This document shows positions 12,769 to 41,551 of a stretch of DNA of 64,000 nt, piece by piece (within the stretch, counting starts at the first letter, position 1; each line of letters begins with the position of its first letter). Both the position numbers and the translations under genes were made by a program. Origin of the DNA: a virus; the IMG/VR virus record IMGVR_UViG_3300049255_000083, positions 13,952 to 77,951 of that record; one strand, given 5' to 3'. The notes under the pieces are model-generated. The model saw nothing but the letters and a program-made list of their open reading frames with translations, did not search any database and had not been told where the DNA came from.

Positions 12769-15700
12769 TTACCGCTTCGTCCTGTTCCGCTCGTGGTTCG
12801 CGATCTGATTCTGAGCGCGGGCGTCGATGATGCGGGCCAGGTCGCCCTTCAACCGCAGCTCGACGACCTGGCCACCTGCGGCTGCGCCGACCGTAGCGCC
12901 GCCCGTTCGTGCAACAGGGGCGAGGCCCGCAACGGGGTTCTGCTGGTAGTACTGCGACGCGACCCGGCTGAAGCTCTTGAGGTCTCCCATCGTGGTGCCT
13001 TGCTCGTCAGCCGTCTGCGCCCACTTCGAGACGGCGTCCGCGTTCGTGAGCATGGCGTAATCGAAAAGGGCGTCGCTCGCGGCGTCGTACACGCCATCCG
13101 TGATGACCTTTTTGACGTTGTTCTCGAGGAACGGCCGGTCGATCTTGATCCCACGGAACCGGAGCGCCCGATAAATGTCATCGAGAGAGCCCCCATGCTC
13201 GTCGAGAGCGTCCTGGGTCTCTTCGTCCCGCTTCTCGGCATGCGTGTCGTGGACGTAGATGGAGTGCGGCGTGAGCATCTTCTGCGCGGCGATAGCCGTC
13301 TCAGGCGGATTGGCGTCTTCAATGGCCTTCTGCATCTTGTCTAGGCCACCCACCATCTGCGCGGCGATAACCGTCTCAGGCGGATTGGCGGCTTCAATGG
13401 CCTTCTGCATCTTGTCTAGGCCACCCACCATCGCCTGGAACGGGAACTGGTTCATCGCCTCCTTCATCGCGTCGCCGATGACGGCGGGGTCGATGCCGGC
13501 TTGAGACATCGCGTCCGTGACGTCCCCGGTGAACGCGGGGTTCTGCTTCAGCTCATCGAGCTTCTTCTGGACCTTGTCGAAATCCTGCTCACTCAGCTTG
13601 CCCTTGATGATCTTGAGGGCGTCATCCGAGCTGATGTTCTTGAGCGTCAGCTTCTTCATTTCGTTGAAATGCGCCTTCGCAAGGGCAAGCTCGGCCGAGA
13701 GCTGTGCCTTCTGATCGGCCGGCGTCTTGGGGTCGTCGAGCTTCTTCTGGAGGTTGGTCATCTTCTCGACCTGCTTGTCGATGGCCTGACCCATCTTGCC
13801 GAACGTGCCCTTTTGCAGCTCCTCGCGCATCTTGCACGTGTCGCCCTGAGCCTTGCCGAAGGCACTGATCAGTTCCGAGTTGCCGGACTTCTGAACCATG
13901 CGGCTCTCTTGGAGCTGTTCACGACGGCTCTTGGTGTTGTCACCCCCGACAACCTTGTCCACCAGGTCCAAGAGGGCGTCATACGTGTCGGACAGGATCT
14001 TGTAGAGCTGGTTCATCACGAAATCGACGAGGATGCCGATCTTGTCCTGCACGCTCGTCTGGAACTTAGAGGTCTCCTTCTGGAAATCGATTTCCGTTTT
14101 GCCGTCTTGGAGCAGGCGCTTCTGGTCGGCCGACATGGCGTCCCACACCTGCTTGGCCTTAAAGTCGCGTAGCTTCTTAGCCGCGGCGCCGGCAGTGCCG
14201 TCGATTTTGAGGGCCTTGAGAGCGTCCGTCTCGGAGTCAGTAAGCTCGATCCCCTTCTCGAGCTTGTGTGCCAGGTCCGCCTGCATCTGCTCGACGGCCA
14301 TGTTGAGTTTCGCGAAGGCGTCTTGCTGCTCGTCCGAGACGCCCATGGCCTGCTCAGCACCAAGACGCTCGACCCCCTTCAGCTCCTCGAATTTCTTTCC
14401 GAACATCTTCATCGACTCGGACTGGAGCTGCTCCATCGTGTCAAACGGGTCGAGGTTTCCGATGGCGCTGGCCAGGTCCACGGGCGTGCCCGCAACGATC
14501 TTGCTCTGCTGGCGGGCGGCTTCGTAGATGGCCTTCTTCGTGTCGTCGGTCATGCCCTCGCCGTTGTCGGCGATCCACTTGGCGAGTTCCTTGTCCGACT
14601 TCTTCAGGACCTGCTTCAGGATCTGCGGGTCCAGCTCCTGTCCGGTCTCCGCCCCGATACGACCAGCGAGCCCTTCGAGCTTCTTATCGAAGCTCTTCAT
14701 GTAATCGGCCGAACCGCGACCTCCCATGAGAACGTGCTTCGTGCGCTCCCCGAGGCCCTGATTCTTGAAAAATCCCGTGACGCCTTGAAGGAACTTCTGA
14801 GCATCGCGCGGGCTCATTGCCTTGCCCAGGCCGATCATCACCTTCGTGATGTCCTCCATGCGAAGGGTGAACAGCGTGAGGTCGCCGGAAAAACCTCGGA
14901 TGATGTTGAAGAACTTGTTGGTCGCGATGCCCGCTTCTTCAGCACCACGGATCATGTACTGGAACGACGTCTCGACATCGACGAGGTTCATACCGAGATC
15001 GGTCATCATCTCGCCCTCGAGCTGACCGATCTCTTGGAGACTCACGCCGAATGCAAGGGAGTACGCGACGGACATCTGCGTGAGCTTGCTCCAATCGGAG
15101 GCGTAGCCCGCGGCACCTTTCGAGTCCTTGCCGACCTGCTTGAACGACTCGTCGAGCTTTTTCAGGCTGACGCCCTCGGCCGTGATGGCGTTGAGGACAG
15201 CCTGGTGGGTCTCCTTGTTGATGCCCCAGTCGAGATTGTCGAGACTCGTCGCCTGGTCACGAATCTTCGTGAGCGTGTCTTCGAGATCCTGCGCGCCTGC
15301 CCCGACCGACTTCAGATTCTTGTGGAGGAACTCGGAGCTGCCAGCGGTCGATAGGATGTTCTTGTTGAACTCCTTTGCGCCCGCTTCGGCGTCGATGAGA
15401 AGCTGAACGATGGACGCGATGGCGCCTGCGGCCATCGAGAGGATCGGCCCGAGCGTTTTGAGCGTGGTGCCGAGTTTGCCGATGATGTCCCCCATCTTGC
15501 CCATCGCCCCGCCGCCACCGCCGGCTGCGGACATCTTGGCCCCGAGCTTCCCGAGACCGCCACCCACCGCCCCGAATCCGCGACCCAGGATCTTGCCCGC
15601 GAGCTTCGCCATCGTGGGCACGTCTTTGGAGAGAACCGCCTTGAGCGGCGCCGAGATCAGGTCACCGATCTCCTCCCCGGCGTCGAGGGCCGCATCGGTG

Positions 15701-37421: not shown

Positions 37422-37751
37422 TCACGCCTGGGGTGGCGCGGCCTCTGGCGCCGGGGCCTCGGGCGCCTGGCCGTTCGGGACGTTGAGCAAGCTGATCTTG
37501 CCGGTCTGCGGGTCCACCTCGACCGGGACGTTCGGCCCGAGCCCGCGGCTCGAGAGAACGGTCGCGAAGAGCTTGGACCGCTCGTCGTCAAGTCTGCGTA
37601 CTTCCACGAGAACTTTGACCTTCTCCTGCTCGAGGTCGACCATCATTTCCCCGAGCTGGAGGCGGCGGGTCTGGATCTCCCCCATGCGCTTGAGCGTCTG
37701 GGCGTCCACCGGGTCGTTGATCGTGAGCTTCTTCTCGGATTCGGTTCCCAT
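37422..37751 (-). CDS. Small coiled-coil protein, 109 aa
   Basis: RBS GGGAGATG; typical codon usage. Confidence 0.65.
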   Translation of the reverse strand: MGTESEKKLTINDPVDAQTLKRMGEIQTRRLQLGEMMVDLEQEKVKVLVEVRRLDDERSKLFATVLSSRGLGPNVPVEVDPQTGKISLLNVPNGQAPEAPAPEAAPPQA

Positions 37752-37829
37752 TTTTCATCTCCCGCGTTGATCGGCGGTGTGGTGGGCGCTTAGCACCCGT
37801 AGGGCTACGTCTATGAAAGGAATTTTCCC

Positions 37830-38204
37830 ATGCGTTCGACCGTGGAATTCGATTTGGCCGCCTTGCGGATCGCCGTCGACAATGCGACCGAGGGCCGGTA
37901 CTCGGCCCTCCGGCACGAGTGCGGCGCCAGCGGGTGGCAGCCTCGCATGTGGGCACAGACACCGGCGGAAGGGGCTCCCCGAGGGACAACGCGCGTTTTC
38001 TTCATCGGCCTCGACTCTCTCGGCCGAACGCAGTACTTCGATACCGCGCTGATCCCCGACAAGTCCATCGGCAAGAAGATCCAGATCTCCGAGACGGTTC
38101 AGGAAGCGGCTCGAACCGCGCACCGGCTCGAAGCCGGGCTCTCGCGACTCGACGCGGGGCTCGACCACGAGCCTCCGGCGCCCGAGGTTAGAGCGCTGAA
38201 CTAG
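37830..38204 (+). CDS. Hypothetical protein on the plus strand, 124 aa
   Basis: GAAAGGA RBS; fills the gap between minus-strand genes and ends 1 nt from a convergent stop. Confidence 0.65.
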   Translation: MRSTVEFDLAALRIAVDNATEGRYSALRHECGASGWQPRMWAQTPAEGAPRGTTRVFFIGLDSLGRTQYFDTALIPDKSIGKKIQISETVQEAARTAHRLEAGLSRLDAGLDHEPPAPEVRALN

Positions 38205-38205
38205 G

Positions 38206-38715
38206 TCACTCGCCCGCGCCGGCCTCGGACAGGAGCTTCTCGATGTCCTTGGTCGTCTTGCCGAGGTCGGCCACCCAGTCCACGAAGAAGTCGAAGGCGC
38301 CCTTGAGGTACTCCCACGCCTTCACGAGCGCGCCCGAGAGGAAGTCGAGGAGACCCGCCGTGCGCGGGGCCACCGCCGGCGCCTGCTCGGGGCCGGGGAC
38401 GTCCATGCCCTTGTCGAAGCGCTCGATGGCGTTCTTCAGGCTCTCCAGAACGGCCTTTTTGCCGAGGTCCTTCTCGGCCACCATCATCATGAACTGGAAC
38501 TCCTTCTCGAACTCGATGGCGTAGTTCGCGGCCTTGTCCTTCTTCTCAGCCGCCTTCGTCAGCGCTTCGAGCTGTTCCTTGGCCTTGGCGAGTTCCTTCT
38601 CGAACTTCGCCATGTCGCTCTTGGCCTCTTCGAGCCACTTCTGCTTCTGAGCGACGCCCTTCTGGCTCTTGGCCTTCGAGAGACCGTACTCGGGAAGTTG
38701 CTCAAAGTTGGTCAC
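38206..38715 (-). CDS. Coiled-coil protein, 169 aa (probable virion protein)
   Basis: Start reassigned to GTG 38715, overlapping the tnpB stop (GTGA); K/E/A-rich helices. Confidence 0.7.
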   Translation of the reverse strand: MTNFEQLPEYGLSKAKSQKGVAQKQKWLEEAKSDMAKFEKELAKAKEQLEALTKAAEKKDKAANYAIEFEKEFQFMMMVAEKDLGKKAVLESLKNAIERFDKGMDVPGPEQAPAVAPRTAGLLDFLSGALVKAWEYLKGAFDFFVDWVADLGKTTKDIEKLLSEAGAGE

Positions 38716-40127
38716 TGGGCAACCACCTGATTTGAGGCTGTGCCGGACCGTAGAGGTACTCCGGTAGTAAGCCTCCGGCTCGACGGTACGAGCGCGTTCT
38801 GTACTGACTCTCCCAAGGAACTCGTTCGGCAATGTGCCCGAAATCGCTCTCTCAGCAGTGTCTTCACTGCGGACGGGTGATCATCAAGACCAACTTGTTT
38901 GTCCTCGGAACGTCCGAGCAAGTTGATCCCTCCCACCACGTCCGCGTGACTTTTCCTGCCGCATGAGCGGCAGATGAACTTGATCCCTGACCTATTGCTC
39001 CTGGAGACGTAGCCGCAGCTAGGGCATGTCTGGCTTGAGTAGGCGGGGTTGACGACCTCGCAGGGGGCCTTCGTGGCAAGGCTGTGATGCAAAGCTCGAT
39101 AGGCGAAACGCTTGGCCCCCCGGCAGCCGCGAAGGTCGAGATCCTCAACGACGAACACGGCGCTGGGGTGAGCTTCCACGAGCTTGTTTGCACACTCACC
39201 GGCCACTGTCTTGACCAGCCCAGTGAGCTTGGCTTCAAGGTAGTCGAGCCTGGGCGAGTTTTCCTTGAATCCTTGTCGTTGTCGGTTCGCTCGAAGGTTG
39301 CGAACCTTTTGGTACAAGGTGTCGAACTTCGGTTTCAACGAGGCTCCGAGAAGCCTCCCTGACGACGTAGCGGCCATCACGTTGAGGCCAACGTCAATGC
39401 CGATCTTGGGGGCATCCAGATCACGCTCCGGCACTTCCCATTCCTTGCGCTCGACGACCTCGAAGCGCCATCGGCCTTGCTTGGTTTTGCGCGCCAAGAT
39501 GCCTTTTGAGACATCGGCTACGTCTTTGCAGTAGGGACTCGCCGCCAACGGAAGCTGAATCCTGGCCTTCCCCGCCTGTAGATGGGAGAACCCAAGCCAC
39601 CACTGAGTGACCTTCGTGTCCGTTGTCATGCTGAGCACGGCGGTCATCTCGCTCATCCGCATCCCGCAACGGCTGGAGATGCTTGGCGCTCGCCCGACGA
39701 TGACTTCGTCGAGCAACCATGACCAATAGAGATCGAGAGCTTCCTGGGTGACCTTGCCCCCTGGCTTGTCTACAAGGCGCTTACCGATGATATAGAGAGC
39801 TGAACGGGTTGCCTCGTCGATCTCCTGTGCTTTGAACTTCTGCTTGATGAGCGACTTGAGCTTTGCTGTGTACTTCGATGCTGCCCACCCCGAGACGATA
39901 CTGAGGGCGTGATCTCGGACGTTCTTGACGATTTGGCTGGAGAGTGTCTCGCACCCAGGGAAGAACGCCTGCTTCTCCCTGAGCGACACAGTGAACCTGT
40001 GGGTCGCGAGCATCGCTTGGACGCAGACTTCAAGATAGGCTGCATACTCTGCTTGGAGAGCTTCCAAGGCAGCGATCTTCCCTAAATTTGCCTCTGTGTG
40101 CAGGTAGAGAAAGCGGGACTTCTTCAC
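38712..40127 (-). CDS. tnpB: Intact TnpB/Cas12f-like RNA-guided nuclease, 471 aa
   Basis: RuvC D (IGIDVG), E (VVEDL), Zn finger CPSC/CRSC, D (HADVVGGINL); codon usage differs from the flanks. Confidence 0.88.
   Translation of the reverse strand: MKKSRFLYLHTEANLGKIAALEALQAEYAAYLEVCVQAMLATHRFTVSLREKQAFFPGCETLSSQIVKNVRDHALSIVSGWAASKYTAKLKSLIKQKFKAQEIDEATRSALYIIGKRLVDKPGGKVTQEALDLYWSWLLDEVIVGRAPSISSRCGMRMSEMTAVLSMTTDTKVTQWWLGFSHLQAGKARIQLPLAASPYCKDVADVSKGILARKTKQGRWRFEVVERKEWEVPERDLDAPKIGIDVGLNVMAATSSGRLLGASLKPKFDTLYQKVRNLRANRQRQGFKENSPRLDYLEAKLTGLVKTVAGECANKLVEAHPSAVFVVEDLDLRGCRGAKRFAYRALHHSLATKAPCEVVNPAYSSQTCPSCGYVSRSNRSGIKFICRSCGRKSHADVVGGINLLGRSEDKQVGLDDHPSAVKTLLRERFRAHCRTSSLGESVQNALVPSSRRLTTGVPLRSGTASNQVVAQ
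38727..38830 (-). ncRNA. Putative omegaRNA of tnpB element 2
   Basis: Hairpins GCTCG-N6-CGAGC and CCGG-N10-CCGG; loop GAGGCT is complementary to AGCCTC near the 3' end (pseudoknot-like); limits approximate. Confidence 0.5.
38727..40126 (-). mobile_element. Minimal tnpB-only insertion (1400 bp under the TCAG junction model)
   Basis: TCAG at both junctions (40130-40127 and 38730-38727); removal restores one in-frame small ORF. An alternative CAGTGA junction is possible. Confidence 0.6.
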
Positions 40128-40198
40128 TGAGGCGCCTCATCCGAGAGGATGTTGCGGGCGAGGAAGCGGCGGACGATGCTCGTGGCGGCGATGTTCAT
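40124..40198 (-). CDS. Small ORF MNIAATSIVRRFLARNILSDEAPQ (24 aa; 28 aa if the insertion is removed)
   Basis: AGGGA RBS and promoter-like motif upstream; stop overlaps the tnpB GTG. Confidence 0.55.
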   Translation of the reverse strand: MNIAATSIVRRFLARNILSDEAPQ

Positions 40199-40217
40199 GT
40201 CCCTACAGCCGGTGCCG

Positions 40218-40230
40218 TATCAAAGGACTA
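40218..40230 (-). promoter_or_regulatory. Candidate late-promoter motif TAGTCCTTTGATA
   Basis: TCCTTTGATA core identical to the copy at 41958. Confidence 0.5.
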
Positions 40231-40569
40231 CGGGCCGCCCTTCGCGTAGCGAGCCTCGAGAACCCGCAGAAAAAGGGCGAATTCGGCCGGATCGATGCCG
40301 TTCTTGAGGAGCGCCTCGCGCCGGGTGGCCTCGCCCTGGCTGTGCGGGCAGTCGGGCTCGTGGTGATCCGGCCGACCGCCGCACGCGGGACACGGCATGT
40401 AGCTCCGCGCCTTGGCGTTCTCGAGTTTGCTCGCCCGCCTTCGGGCGATGGTGAGGTCACGCGGATTCGGGCGATCGTGCCACGTGGCGCACTTGCGCCT
40501 GTGCCGCTTCATCTGCGCGTAGGTCGCGCACGTGAAACCGCAGAGGCAGGGATGAACGCGCGGCGGCAT
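40228..40569 (-). CDS. Cys/His-rich zinc-finger protein
   Basis: CLCG...HRRKC and CPACG...HHEPDCPH; start uncertain. Confidence 0.55.
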   Translation of the reverse strand: MPPRVHPCLCGFTCATYAQMKRHRRKCATWHDRPNPRDLTIARRRASKLENAKARSYMPCPACGGRPDHHEPDCPHSQGEATRREALLKNGIDPAEFALFLRVLEARYAKGGP

Positions 40570-40648
40570 CGCAAAGACCCACCGACGCAACGTCGATCCT
40601 GATGGCATAGGGGTTCCGCCCGTGGCTATACACCGCGGGCGCCTCAGG

Positions 40649-41551
40649 CTAGAGACCCACGAACTTTCGTGGGGAGAGAACACCACGTCCGGCATAAGGT
40701 CCGAACGCCGACCTGATTCCCGTTCCGTACCTCGGTTGCTGAAGGCCCTTGATGATGTTGACGGTGGCCTTGGCCTTTTCGAGCTGCTTGTCGAACTGCT
40801 CTTGGGCCGATTGAGCCGCCGCCTCGTACTTGCTCGACTTCTCCAAGTTGAGGGACACGCCCCCGATGGAGTAGTCGAACTCGTCCGCGATCCAGTTGAT
40901 CTGGAGAGCGTGTAGCGCGTACCACATCGCTCCCGTAAGCAGGAGCGTCGTCCACTCCCGGCGATAGGCCACCATGGAGTCGACGTTCGCGAACGGAGTC
41001 CGCGGGGGAGCGGCGATGATCTCGTCCAGGCTTCGCTGGATGAACTCGTCGAGTTCGCCGTCCTGCCAGATGTAGCCGAAGACGCGGTTGAACTGCCGCA
41101 CCGTGTCCTCGTGCGCCGGCGGCCGGAAATGATAGTTCCGGTCGGGGTTGTTGTCCCTCAAGAGGATGCGGAGGCGGCGGATGCAGTCCGCCTCTATGGG
41201 GGAGAACGACGTCGCGAGCGACTCCGGTCCGACGATCTGCTTGTCGGTGACCGTGAACTCTTGGAGGACCTGCTGCACGGGGCCGCCCACGAGTTCGCGG
41301 AAGGTCCACCGGATACGGTAGTCGCCGAGGTTCGCGTCGAGCGGGATGATGACGCTCGCGAAATACTCCCCCACGCTCGGGTTGGCCGGCTGCCGACGCG
41401 GCGGACCGAGGAGGGCCTCACGCCCCGTCGTGAAATCGAACAGGGCGTAGCTGATCTCGGCGGCGTTCGAGGGCGAGCCGTTCGAGTTGGTGAGAAAGAT
41501 GTTGAGGTCCCCTCGGCCGAGGGGCTGCCCTCTGAAGAAGTTGACGGCCAC
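40649..41551 (-). CDS. Head-tail adaptor/neck protein (gp13-like) with N-terminal Ig-like domain, 300 aa
   Basis: RRLRILLRD...LLLTGA...FDYSIGGVSLNLEKSSKYE adaptor-type helical domain. Confidence 0.7.
   Translation of the reverse strand: MAVNFFRGQPLGRGDLNIFLTNSNGSPSNAAEISYALFDFTTGREALLGPPRRQPANPSVGEYFASVIIPLDANLGDYRIRWTFRELVGGPVQQVLQEFTVTDKQIVGPESLATSFSPIEADCIRRLRILLRDNNPDRNYHFRPPAHEDTVRQFNRVFGYIWQDGELDEFIQRSLDEIIAAPPRTPFANVDSMVAYRREWTTLLLTGAMWYALHALQINWIADEFDYSIGGVSLNLEKSSKYEAAAQSAQEQFDKQLEKAKATVNIIKGLQQPRYGTGIRSAFGPYAGRGVLSPRKFVGL

Follow-up and report, generated by a model that had tools for sequence, protein, structure and literature searches.

Anatomy and probable history of a 5′-truncated IS607-family element in a huge-phage genome

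Introduction

How does an intact tnpB gene without a transposase come to lie inside the structural operon of a phage, and what might it do there? The question is raised by a 64,000-nucleotide stretch of viral DNA (the window; positions 13,952 to 77,951 of IMG/VR virus record IMGVR_UViG_3300049255_000083), which is part of a 79-kb record with a CheckV completeness of about 17%. On the minus strand, at 38712..40127, an open reading frame (ORF) with a GTG start encodes a TnpB of 471 amino acids. As a sequence-only reading of the window had described, the gene is intact, is oriented like the phage genes, stands directly behind a phage start and stub ORF, and has neither a tnpA gene nor a left end. 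The ORF coordinates and the 4-nt overlaps given in that reading are also correct: the GTG of tnpB shares bases with the TGA of a 24-amino-acid ORF, as CAGTGA, and its TGA likewise overlaps a GTG, at 38715, from which a frame of 169 amino acids starts.

Phage-encoded TnpBs, solo TnpBs and TnpB-driven homing have already been described (PMC12607003, PMC8612924, PMC10055086, PMC13565253). The sequence-only reading took the present gene for a precise, translation-neutral insertion (38727-40126) in a 28-amino-acid ORF, with TCAG as target-adjacent motif (TAM) and GTGGTTGCCCAGTGACC as guide. Comparison with related elements, intact phage alleles and metagenome assemblies points elsewhere. The locus is very probably a 5′-truncated IS607-family element that interrupted a conserved gene of a huge phage and later lost its left side together with part of that gene.

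The interrupted phage gene

The two ORFs that overlap tnpB represent, by alignment, the N-terminal and the C-terminal part of a single conserved phage gene. On two viral contigs of relatives (L002 and L003), their counterparts form the opposite ends of one gene, 321 and 313 amino acids long respectively, which directly follows the same Cys-rich gene as in the window (40228..40695, minus strand), a context marker that adjoins the intact gene in relatives. A profile search recovered 45 further homologues, almost all of them 295-339 amino acids long. Codons 1-21 of the stub (40124..40198, minus strand) are the N-terminus of the interrupted gene and match residues 1-21 of intact homologues of 313-325 amino acids. 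The closest homologues (L016-L018, 67-70% protein identity) align with the stub over residues 1-21, while their residues ~157-320 align with residues 12-169 of the downstream frame (38206..38715, minus strand). This frame is chimeric, as its first 11 codons (GTG...GGT, 38715-38683, encoding VTNFEQLPEYG) are right-end DNA of the element.

Residues ~22-156 of the phage gene, about 135 codons, are missing from the whole 79-kb record. They contain most of the invariant positions of the family and form a confidently modelled helical domain. The AlphaFold model of an intact homologue (predicted local distance difference test score, pLDDT, 81) consists of a helical N-domain and a long coiled coil, and has no significant fold match in the PDB. 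Searches of PHROGs and Pfam returned nothing usable for the interrupted gene and its neighbours, and the ESM Atlas gave no hit for them.

The insertion can hence not be called translation-neutral, since a large part of a conserved gene, with most of its invariant residues, is gone. Deleting 38727-40126 does produce a 28-amino-acid ORF on paper, but relatives carry a gene of 295-339 amino acids at this site, so the restored ORF has no biological counterpart.

Two other homologues deserve mention. One of 182 amino acids (P0171) was considered as a second split allele and rejected, being located at a contig end. Another (L019:1-90) has an in-frame TGA at the family's invariant Trp (..GDEIEK*VKQ..), for which a nonsense mutation, a sequencing error or recoding are all possible.

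Family and borders of the element

Complete copies of the element (L011-L013 and L015) encode a 210-amino-acid TnpA, with a MerR-type helix-turn-helix and a resolvase domain, whose stop overlaps the tnpB start by 4 nt (ATGA/GTGA). The lineage is thus of IS607 type and, judged by sequence, the window copy is a remnant of it. Its members share several traits with IS607 elements as described for ISFba1 (PMC11061315) and for IS607/IS1535 (PMC13565253): complete relatives carry this transposase directly upstream of tnpB and overlapping it, terminal inverted repeats are absent, the right end reads ..GG(T), insertion occurs beside G-rich sequence, and the RuvC triad and zinc ribbon are present. They differ in that the window copy has no tnpA and no left end, and in that the contigs in which the lineage occurs carry phage genes and are in some cases very large. 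In comparison with ISFba1, the TnpB is also longer (471 vs 387 amino acids), and its RNA shows no RAGATH-18 match.

The right border is sharply defined. Homology to ten independent copies (L004, L005, L006/7, L008, L009, L010, L011, L014, L015 and L020) stops at the identical base, ...TTTGAGCAACTTCCCGAGTACGGT, at window position 38683, and the flanks beyond it are unrelated. As elsewhere in the IS607 lineage, this end lies in or near a GG that is followed by unrelated flank. The right end, ...GAGTACGGT, also occurs at loose ends in the same sample. It lies 44 nt past the junction of the sequence-only reading, which had placed the end of the element and of its RNA at ...AAATCAG (38727); in the ten loci, homology continues through that point.

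Several features of the right side, which might be taken for an accommodation to the phage, are found in other copies. The start codon that overlaps the tnpB stop is an ATG in most copies and is therefore element-intrinsic, and the string VTNFEQLPEYG follows the tnpB remnant in L005 too. A conserved leader peptide was considered for this start codon and rejected: L008 and L010 have the frame behind it shifted and L011 lacks the codon, so that conservation acts at the level of the RNA and not of the peptide. In the window, the right-end frame and the phage gene are by chance in phase, for which the odds are one in three.

On the left side of complete copies, some 240 nt separate tnpA from the left end upstream, which begins (T/G)(A/G)GGGTT..GTTGAC. 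The motif, derived from L006, L008, L011, L014, L015 and L020, has no match in the window even with three mismatches and none in the 79-kb record; no tnpA is present in the window or in the whole record. Scanning the viral_contigs with the motif gave no match, and scanning the metagenome_contigs gave one, in the miniature element L020. Phage homology ends at about 40137 and element homology starts at 40127-40133. The 9 nt at the junction (40128..40136, minus strand) represent either a deletion joint or a remnant of a tnpA tail, and leave no room for a left end.

The end of the stub supplies a clue to what was lost. Its GCG CCT CAG TGA resembles tnpA tails such as GTG GCC CAG TGA, from a sibling copy in the same sample, and GTA GCC TCG TGA, from L008. 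The last three stub codons and the TGA probably stem, on this resemblance, from the end of a lost tnpA, and the GTGA ‘wiring’ at the 5′ side would then be the old tnpA/tnpB overlap. The sequence-only reading regarded the overlaps on both sides as host adaptations. Both the overlap of the tnpA stop with the tnpB start and that of the tnpB stop with an ATG occur in complete IS607-type copies, and homologues do carry a conventional left end upstream. A copy of the element preceded by a tnpA tail exists in the same sample.

Other copies show a similar range of 5′ losses. A 118-amino-acid resolvase fragment lies upstream of tnpB in L008, the last 30 tnpA codons in L010 and about 20 degenerate codons in L022; in L009, which is broken at the start codon, nothing recognisable remains. 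The 6-nt CAGTGA repeat was also considered as a target duplication and rejected, as both copies lie in element-derived DNA; IS607 elements make no target duplication (PMC13565253).

The lineage also includes forms of another kind. In L006:3722-5445 and L014:540-2263, normal left and right ends enclose a 60-amino-acid ORF in place of tnpA; the ORF is ribbon-helix-helix-like by eye and has no Pfam hit, and the two copies, in two different genomic contexts, are 87% identical in DNA. In L020:1108-1192, a miniature of about 85 bp, resembling a miniature inverted-repeat transposable element (MITE-like), has its left end joined almost directly to its right end, which implies mobilisation in trans. 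The region of about 240 nt between left end and tnpA, including an ORF of about 64 amino acids, is 93% identical between L011 and L015 (3150-3420), compared with 74% overall. The difference points to strong constraint on a regulatory RNA, a binding region or a small protein. Finally, TnpBs of unrelated lineages adjoin two copies: one of 435 amino acids directly abuts the 5′-truncated relic at L005:2972-4755, and one of 416 amino acids (L015:352-1602) lies 2.4 kb from the element copy. These neighbours suggest repeated or nested insertions in these phage genomes.

The predicted omegaRNA and its guide

The predicted omegaRNA scaffold spans 38683..38933 (minus strand), overlapping the last ~74 tnpB codons and the 29 nt past the stop. 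RNAalifold, applied to ten copies, gives 59 pairs, and 16 of these show compensatory changes. Pairs over long distances link alignment columns 27-31 and 72-76, in the 5′ part that starts at about 38933, to the last 25 nt before the right end, and the last 29 nt before 38683 are engaged in conserved long-range pairs. The z-score of the single-sequence fold is only -1.7. No Rfam family, including omegaRNA, RAGATH-18 and group I intron, matched 37500-41500 at E <= 1, indicating that the scaffold is not of the RAGATH-18 type found with other IS607 TnpBs (PMC11061315).

The guide of a TnpB is encoded by the DNA that flanks the right end (PMC8612924, PMC11061315). With the right end at 38683, the predicted guide is read from 38682-38663 and not from GTGGTTGCC. 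The guide-encoding flank, CTCTCGAAGGCCAAGAGCCA (38663..38682, minus strand), would be the first 20 nt of phage DNA past the right end, and it has a single match in the window.

This shift removes the basis of the target proposed earlier, TCAG followed by GTGGTTGCCCAG. The proposed guide belongs to the conserved scaffold inside the element and is found, with small differences, in relatives inserted at other sites. The bases before the GTG, read as a TCAG TAM, are the last codons of a lost tnpA or junction filler and not a left-end flank; TCAG is found at none of the six true left-end flanks. These six have a purine before GGGTT, which fits the G-rich preference reported for IS607 (PMC11061315, PMC13565253), though they are too few to fix a TAM motif.

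The tnpB gene

The 471-amino-acid product matches the Pfam family Cas12f1-like_TNB (PF07282, E 1.5e-12) and, weakly, OrfB_IS605 (PF01385). Its RuvC residues D245, E328 and D396 and four zinc-ribbon cysteines are intact, and among 112 homologues they are invariant or nearly so. Against seven relatives, the ratio of nonsynonymous to synonymous substitution rates (dN/dS) of codons 1-405 is 0.12-0.15, by which measure TnpB is under purifying selection. In the tail of the gene that overlaps the RNA, synonymous differences are strongly reduced. With its catalytic residues preserved, this TnpB would be expected to act as a nuclease.

Two further observations concern the protein and its gene. For residues 351-399 (window 38935-39077), the best sequence match of solved structure is the C-terminal region of CasPhi-3 (7odf, E 1.6e-10), which outranks every TnpB and Cas12f entry and may bear on the origin of the Cas12j of huge phages. 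The motif GCCCAGTGA occurs both at the tnpB stop and right end (window 38712-38720) and at the tnpA stop and tnpB start of the sibling copy in metagenome run X1; the window TnpB and the sibling TnpA both end in ..VAQ with an overlapping start. This double occurrence of a short motif is probably a coincidence.

The disrupted allele in moss metagenomes

The source phage is present in moss metagenomes. Contigs from four such runs were placed on 37700-41200, a comparison that would miss rare variants. In run X1, unitigs of 25.3 kb (296x) and 4.2 kb (284x), at the phage's own depth, cross both junctions, so the disrupted allele is dominant in an abundant phage. No empty allele and no joint skipping the element was seen in the contigs of the four runs.

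Several near-identical copies of the element must be present in the X1 sample, as the omegaRNA and right-end part totals 1400-1900x and the unitigs break within tnpB. Loose ends at 38683 show other flanks. A further loose end, at 38655, occurs in three runs (X7, X9 and X10) and may be a short chance match. In X10, a low-depth contig joins 38762 to 40086 and represents an internally deleted copy of the element that lacks 1323 nt.

Source and genomic setting

Nearly all genes of the window lie on the minus strand. They include genes for a giant tail-sheath-like protein, a UvrD-type helicase and fibre-like proteins, and tnpB is embedded, in the same direction, in the structural operon. Contigs with relatives of the local genes reach about 350 kb, which makes the source a large or huge phage. 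No close relative of the region occurs in the collection of phage records. GC content is 56-59% in the insert and 63-69% in the flanks. A ‘late-promoter-like motif’ to which tnpB expression had been ascribed (40212-40226) has no sigma-70-like match, and its recurrence in the window is not above chance. For the host, a scan of the genome_contigs yielded one Planctomycetota contig from a metagenome-assembled genome, with a further truncated copy, which is insufficient to name it.

In relatives, the same structural gene block also houses other selfish inserts (L003:2363-4759; L018:4017-6218). The homologue of the 300-amino-acid upstream gene has intein-like insertions there (..SHNS motifs), Hint domains occur in a downstream gene, and a free-standing ORF of 265 amino acids carries a VEVNG..WH endonuclease-like motif.

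A proposed history

These features can be joined in a simple sequence of events. An IS607-type transposon, composed of left end, small ORF, serine-recombinase tnpA, tnpB and omegaRNA/right end, would have inserted at a Gly codon (GG) at about residue 157 of the phage gene. Relatives carry GGG or GGA at this codon, in keeping with the GG at which IS607 elements insert (PMC13565253). A single deletion of some 1.3 kb would later have taken out codons ~22-156 of the phage gene together with the left end and nearly the whole of tnpA, sparing only its last few bases and leaving tnpB and omegaRNA (40127-38683) as the remnant. Insertion followed by a single deletion is the simplest history, and we infer the order on that ground. 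Translation from the phage gene's native start would now pass through its first 21 codons into the old tnpA stop. As this stop overlaps the GTG of tnpB, the signals of the phage gene probably drive tnpB expression, through termination-reinitiation at the GTGA.

The intact right end means that the guide in any omegaRNA produced would be the one encoded by 38682-38663. Other TnpBs process their transcript into omegaRNA (PMC10278001). If the present TnpB does the same, the GTG at 38715 falls inside the scaffold bound in the ribonucleoprotein, and expression of the C-terminal fragment of the phage gene would compete with guide biogenesis. In this respect the locus recalls IStrons, in which a TnpB also lies within a gene and omegaRNA processing may conflict with expression of the host gene (bioRxiv 10.1101/2023.11.20.567912). 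IStrons combine a group I intron with an IS605 or IS607 TnpB, whereas here no intron Rfam match was obtained and no bases are available 5′ of tnpB. With 135 host-gene codons deleted, splicing could not restore the gene.

The window copy is no longer able to transpose. Non-autonomous copies normally retain both ends and remain open to mobilisation in trans, whereas here the left end is missing and the element is fused to the stub of a host gene. Descent and TnpB-stimulated recombination are the only ways in which it could persist. It resembles tnpA-less TnpB elements and the TnpB-driven homing of IS605, where a solo tnpB and intact omegaRNA have likewise outlived the transposase and the guide comes from the right-end flank (PMC8612924; PMC10055086).

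Some points weigh against this history. No intermediate allele was found. The record covers 17% of the genome, and the remainder may contain another intact copy of the phage gene, or a tnpA or left end. The interior of tnpB is repeated in the sample, and short-read unitigs cannot phase it. Moreover, 5′ homology breaks within a few bases of the tnpB start in the window, in L009 and in L006/L014. Three such breaks exceed the expectation for random deletion, although the choice of an intact TnpB as query biases toward them.

Alternative readings

With its guide corrected, the TnpB–omegaRNA module could still act as a drive between co-infecting phages, through non-restorative homing or marker exclusion. 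This is possible but rather unlikely, and it would add a current function to the truncated-element history instead of replacing it. Intact alleles would be cut where the 38682-38663 sequence follows a G-rich TAM, and repair with this genome as the template would copy tnpB along with the 135-codon deletion. That TnpB and omegaRNA are intact and constrained despite the loss of tnpA and left end would be accounted for, as would the untouched right-end junction, which defines the guide. The target is itself conserved, as is the gene around it, and the native sequence of relatives 5′ of the site is G-rich (..GGG/GGA), comparable to the AGGAG/GAGGG TAMs of IS607 TnpBs in another clade (PMC11061315). 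The disrupted allele is dominant in several samples, the gene block of relatives holds intein-like and free-standing endonuclease-like inserts, and ‘transposon non-restorative homing’ exists as a category in the literature (PMC13565253). The distribution of alleles argues the other way. Among 46 homologues, no other phage has tnpB at this site, and the nearest intact alleles, at 67-70% protein identity, have 4-5 mismatches in the 20-nt guide, mostly TAM-proximal. Nor did the contigs of the four runs contain an empty allele or skipping joint.

The nearest analogues of such a drive are the Seg and Mob endonucleases of T-even phages, which mediate intronless homing and marker exclusion. They too are nuclease genes located between or inside conserved phage genes and could bias inheritance in co-infection. 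They differ in that recognition would here be RNA-guided, and no presence/absence polymorphism was found at the present site. A wider proposal, that in this phage-borne IS607 lineage tnpB and omegaRNA repeatedly outlive tnpA and the left end, fuse to host translation signals and persist as RNA-guided drives in co-infections of huge phages, is unlikely.

Domestication, in which TnpB would serve the phage by RNA-guided repression or as a nuclease against competitors and would not be a selfish remnant, is very unlikely. The position in a structural operon would suit it, and phage-encoded TnpB derivatives with host-directed roles exist, such as TldR (bioRxiv 10.1101/2023.11.30.569447). TldR, however, is nuclease-dead, while the window TnpB keeps its catalytic triad. 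The guide matches only the phage's own flank, and the GC content and many truncated siblings point to ordinary insertion sequence (IS) decay.

There is similarly little chance that the locus is an assembly artefact, a chimeric contig built from collapsed tnpB repeats. The several-fold excess of element depth over the phage flanks, the unitig breaks inside tnpB and a few interior positions at which X1 unitigs differ from the window would be expected of such a collapse. Yet both junctions lie within the phage-depth unitigs of X1, and another run, X7, also has a unitig for the 5′ junction (40100-40273). On either side lie portions of one and the same phage gene, correctly ordered and oriented, and the depth beside the 5′ junction (412) is not twice that of the phage.

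The model of a precise, translation-neutral insertion, arithmetically correct in its overlaps and its paper deletion, is scarcely tenable with its guide inside element DNA common to copies at unrelated sites, its right junction 44 nt short, its TCAG at no real left-end flank and its restored ORF unlike any gene of the relatives.

Implications

As it stands, the locus is a case of ordinary IS biology and corrects an over-read. It offers a clean natural example of the decay of an IS607-type TnpB element in a huge-phage genome. To what was known of phage-associated TnpBs it adds both ends of an IS607 lineage, a miniature derivative and an omegaRNA scaffold for which Rfam has no model. It also adds an allele of a conserved gene that was truncated by an element and nevertheless dominates its population, in a phage that is still abundant.

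Should the drive prove true, a 135-codon deletion in a conserved gene of the structural module would have been carried to dominance, and the insertion would be made less costly by the start codon conserved at the right end, from which translation of the downstream fragment would resume. If the module cuts intact alleles, the locus would represent natural RNA-guided homing between phages, which has so far been mainly a concept.

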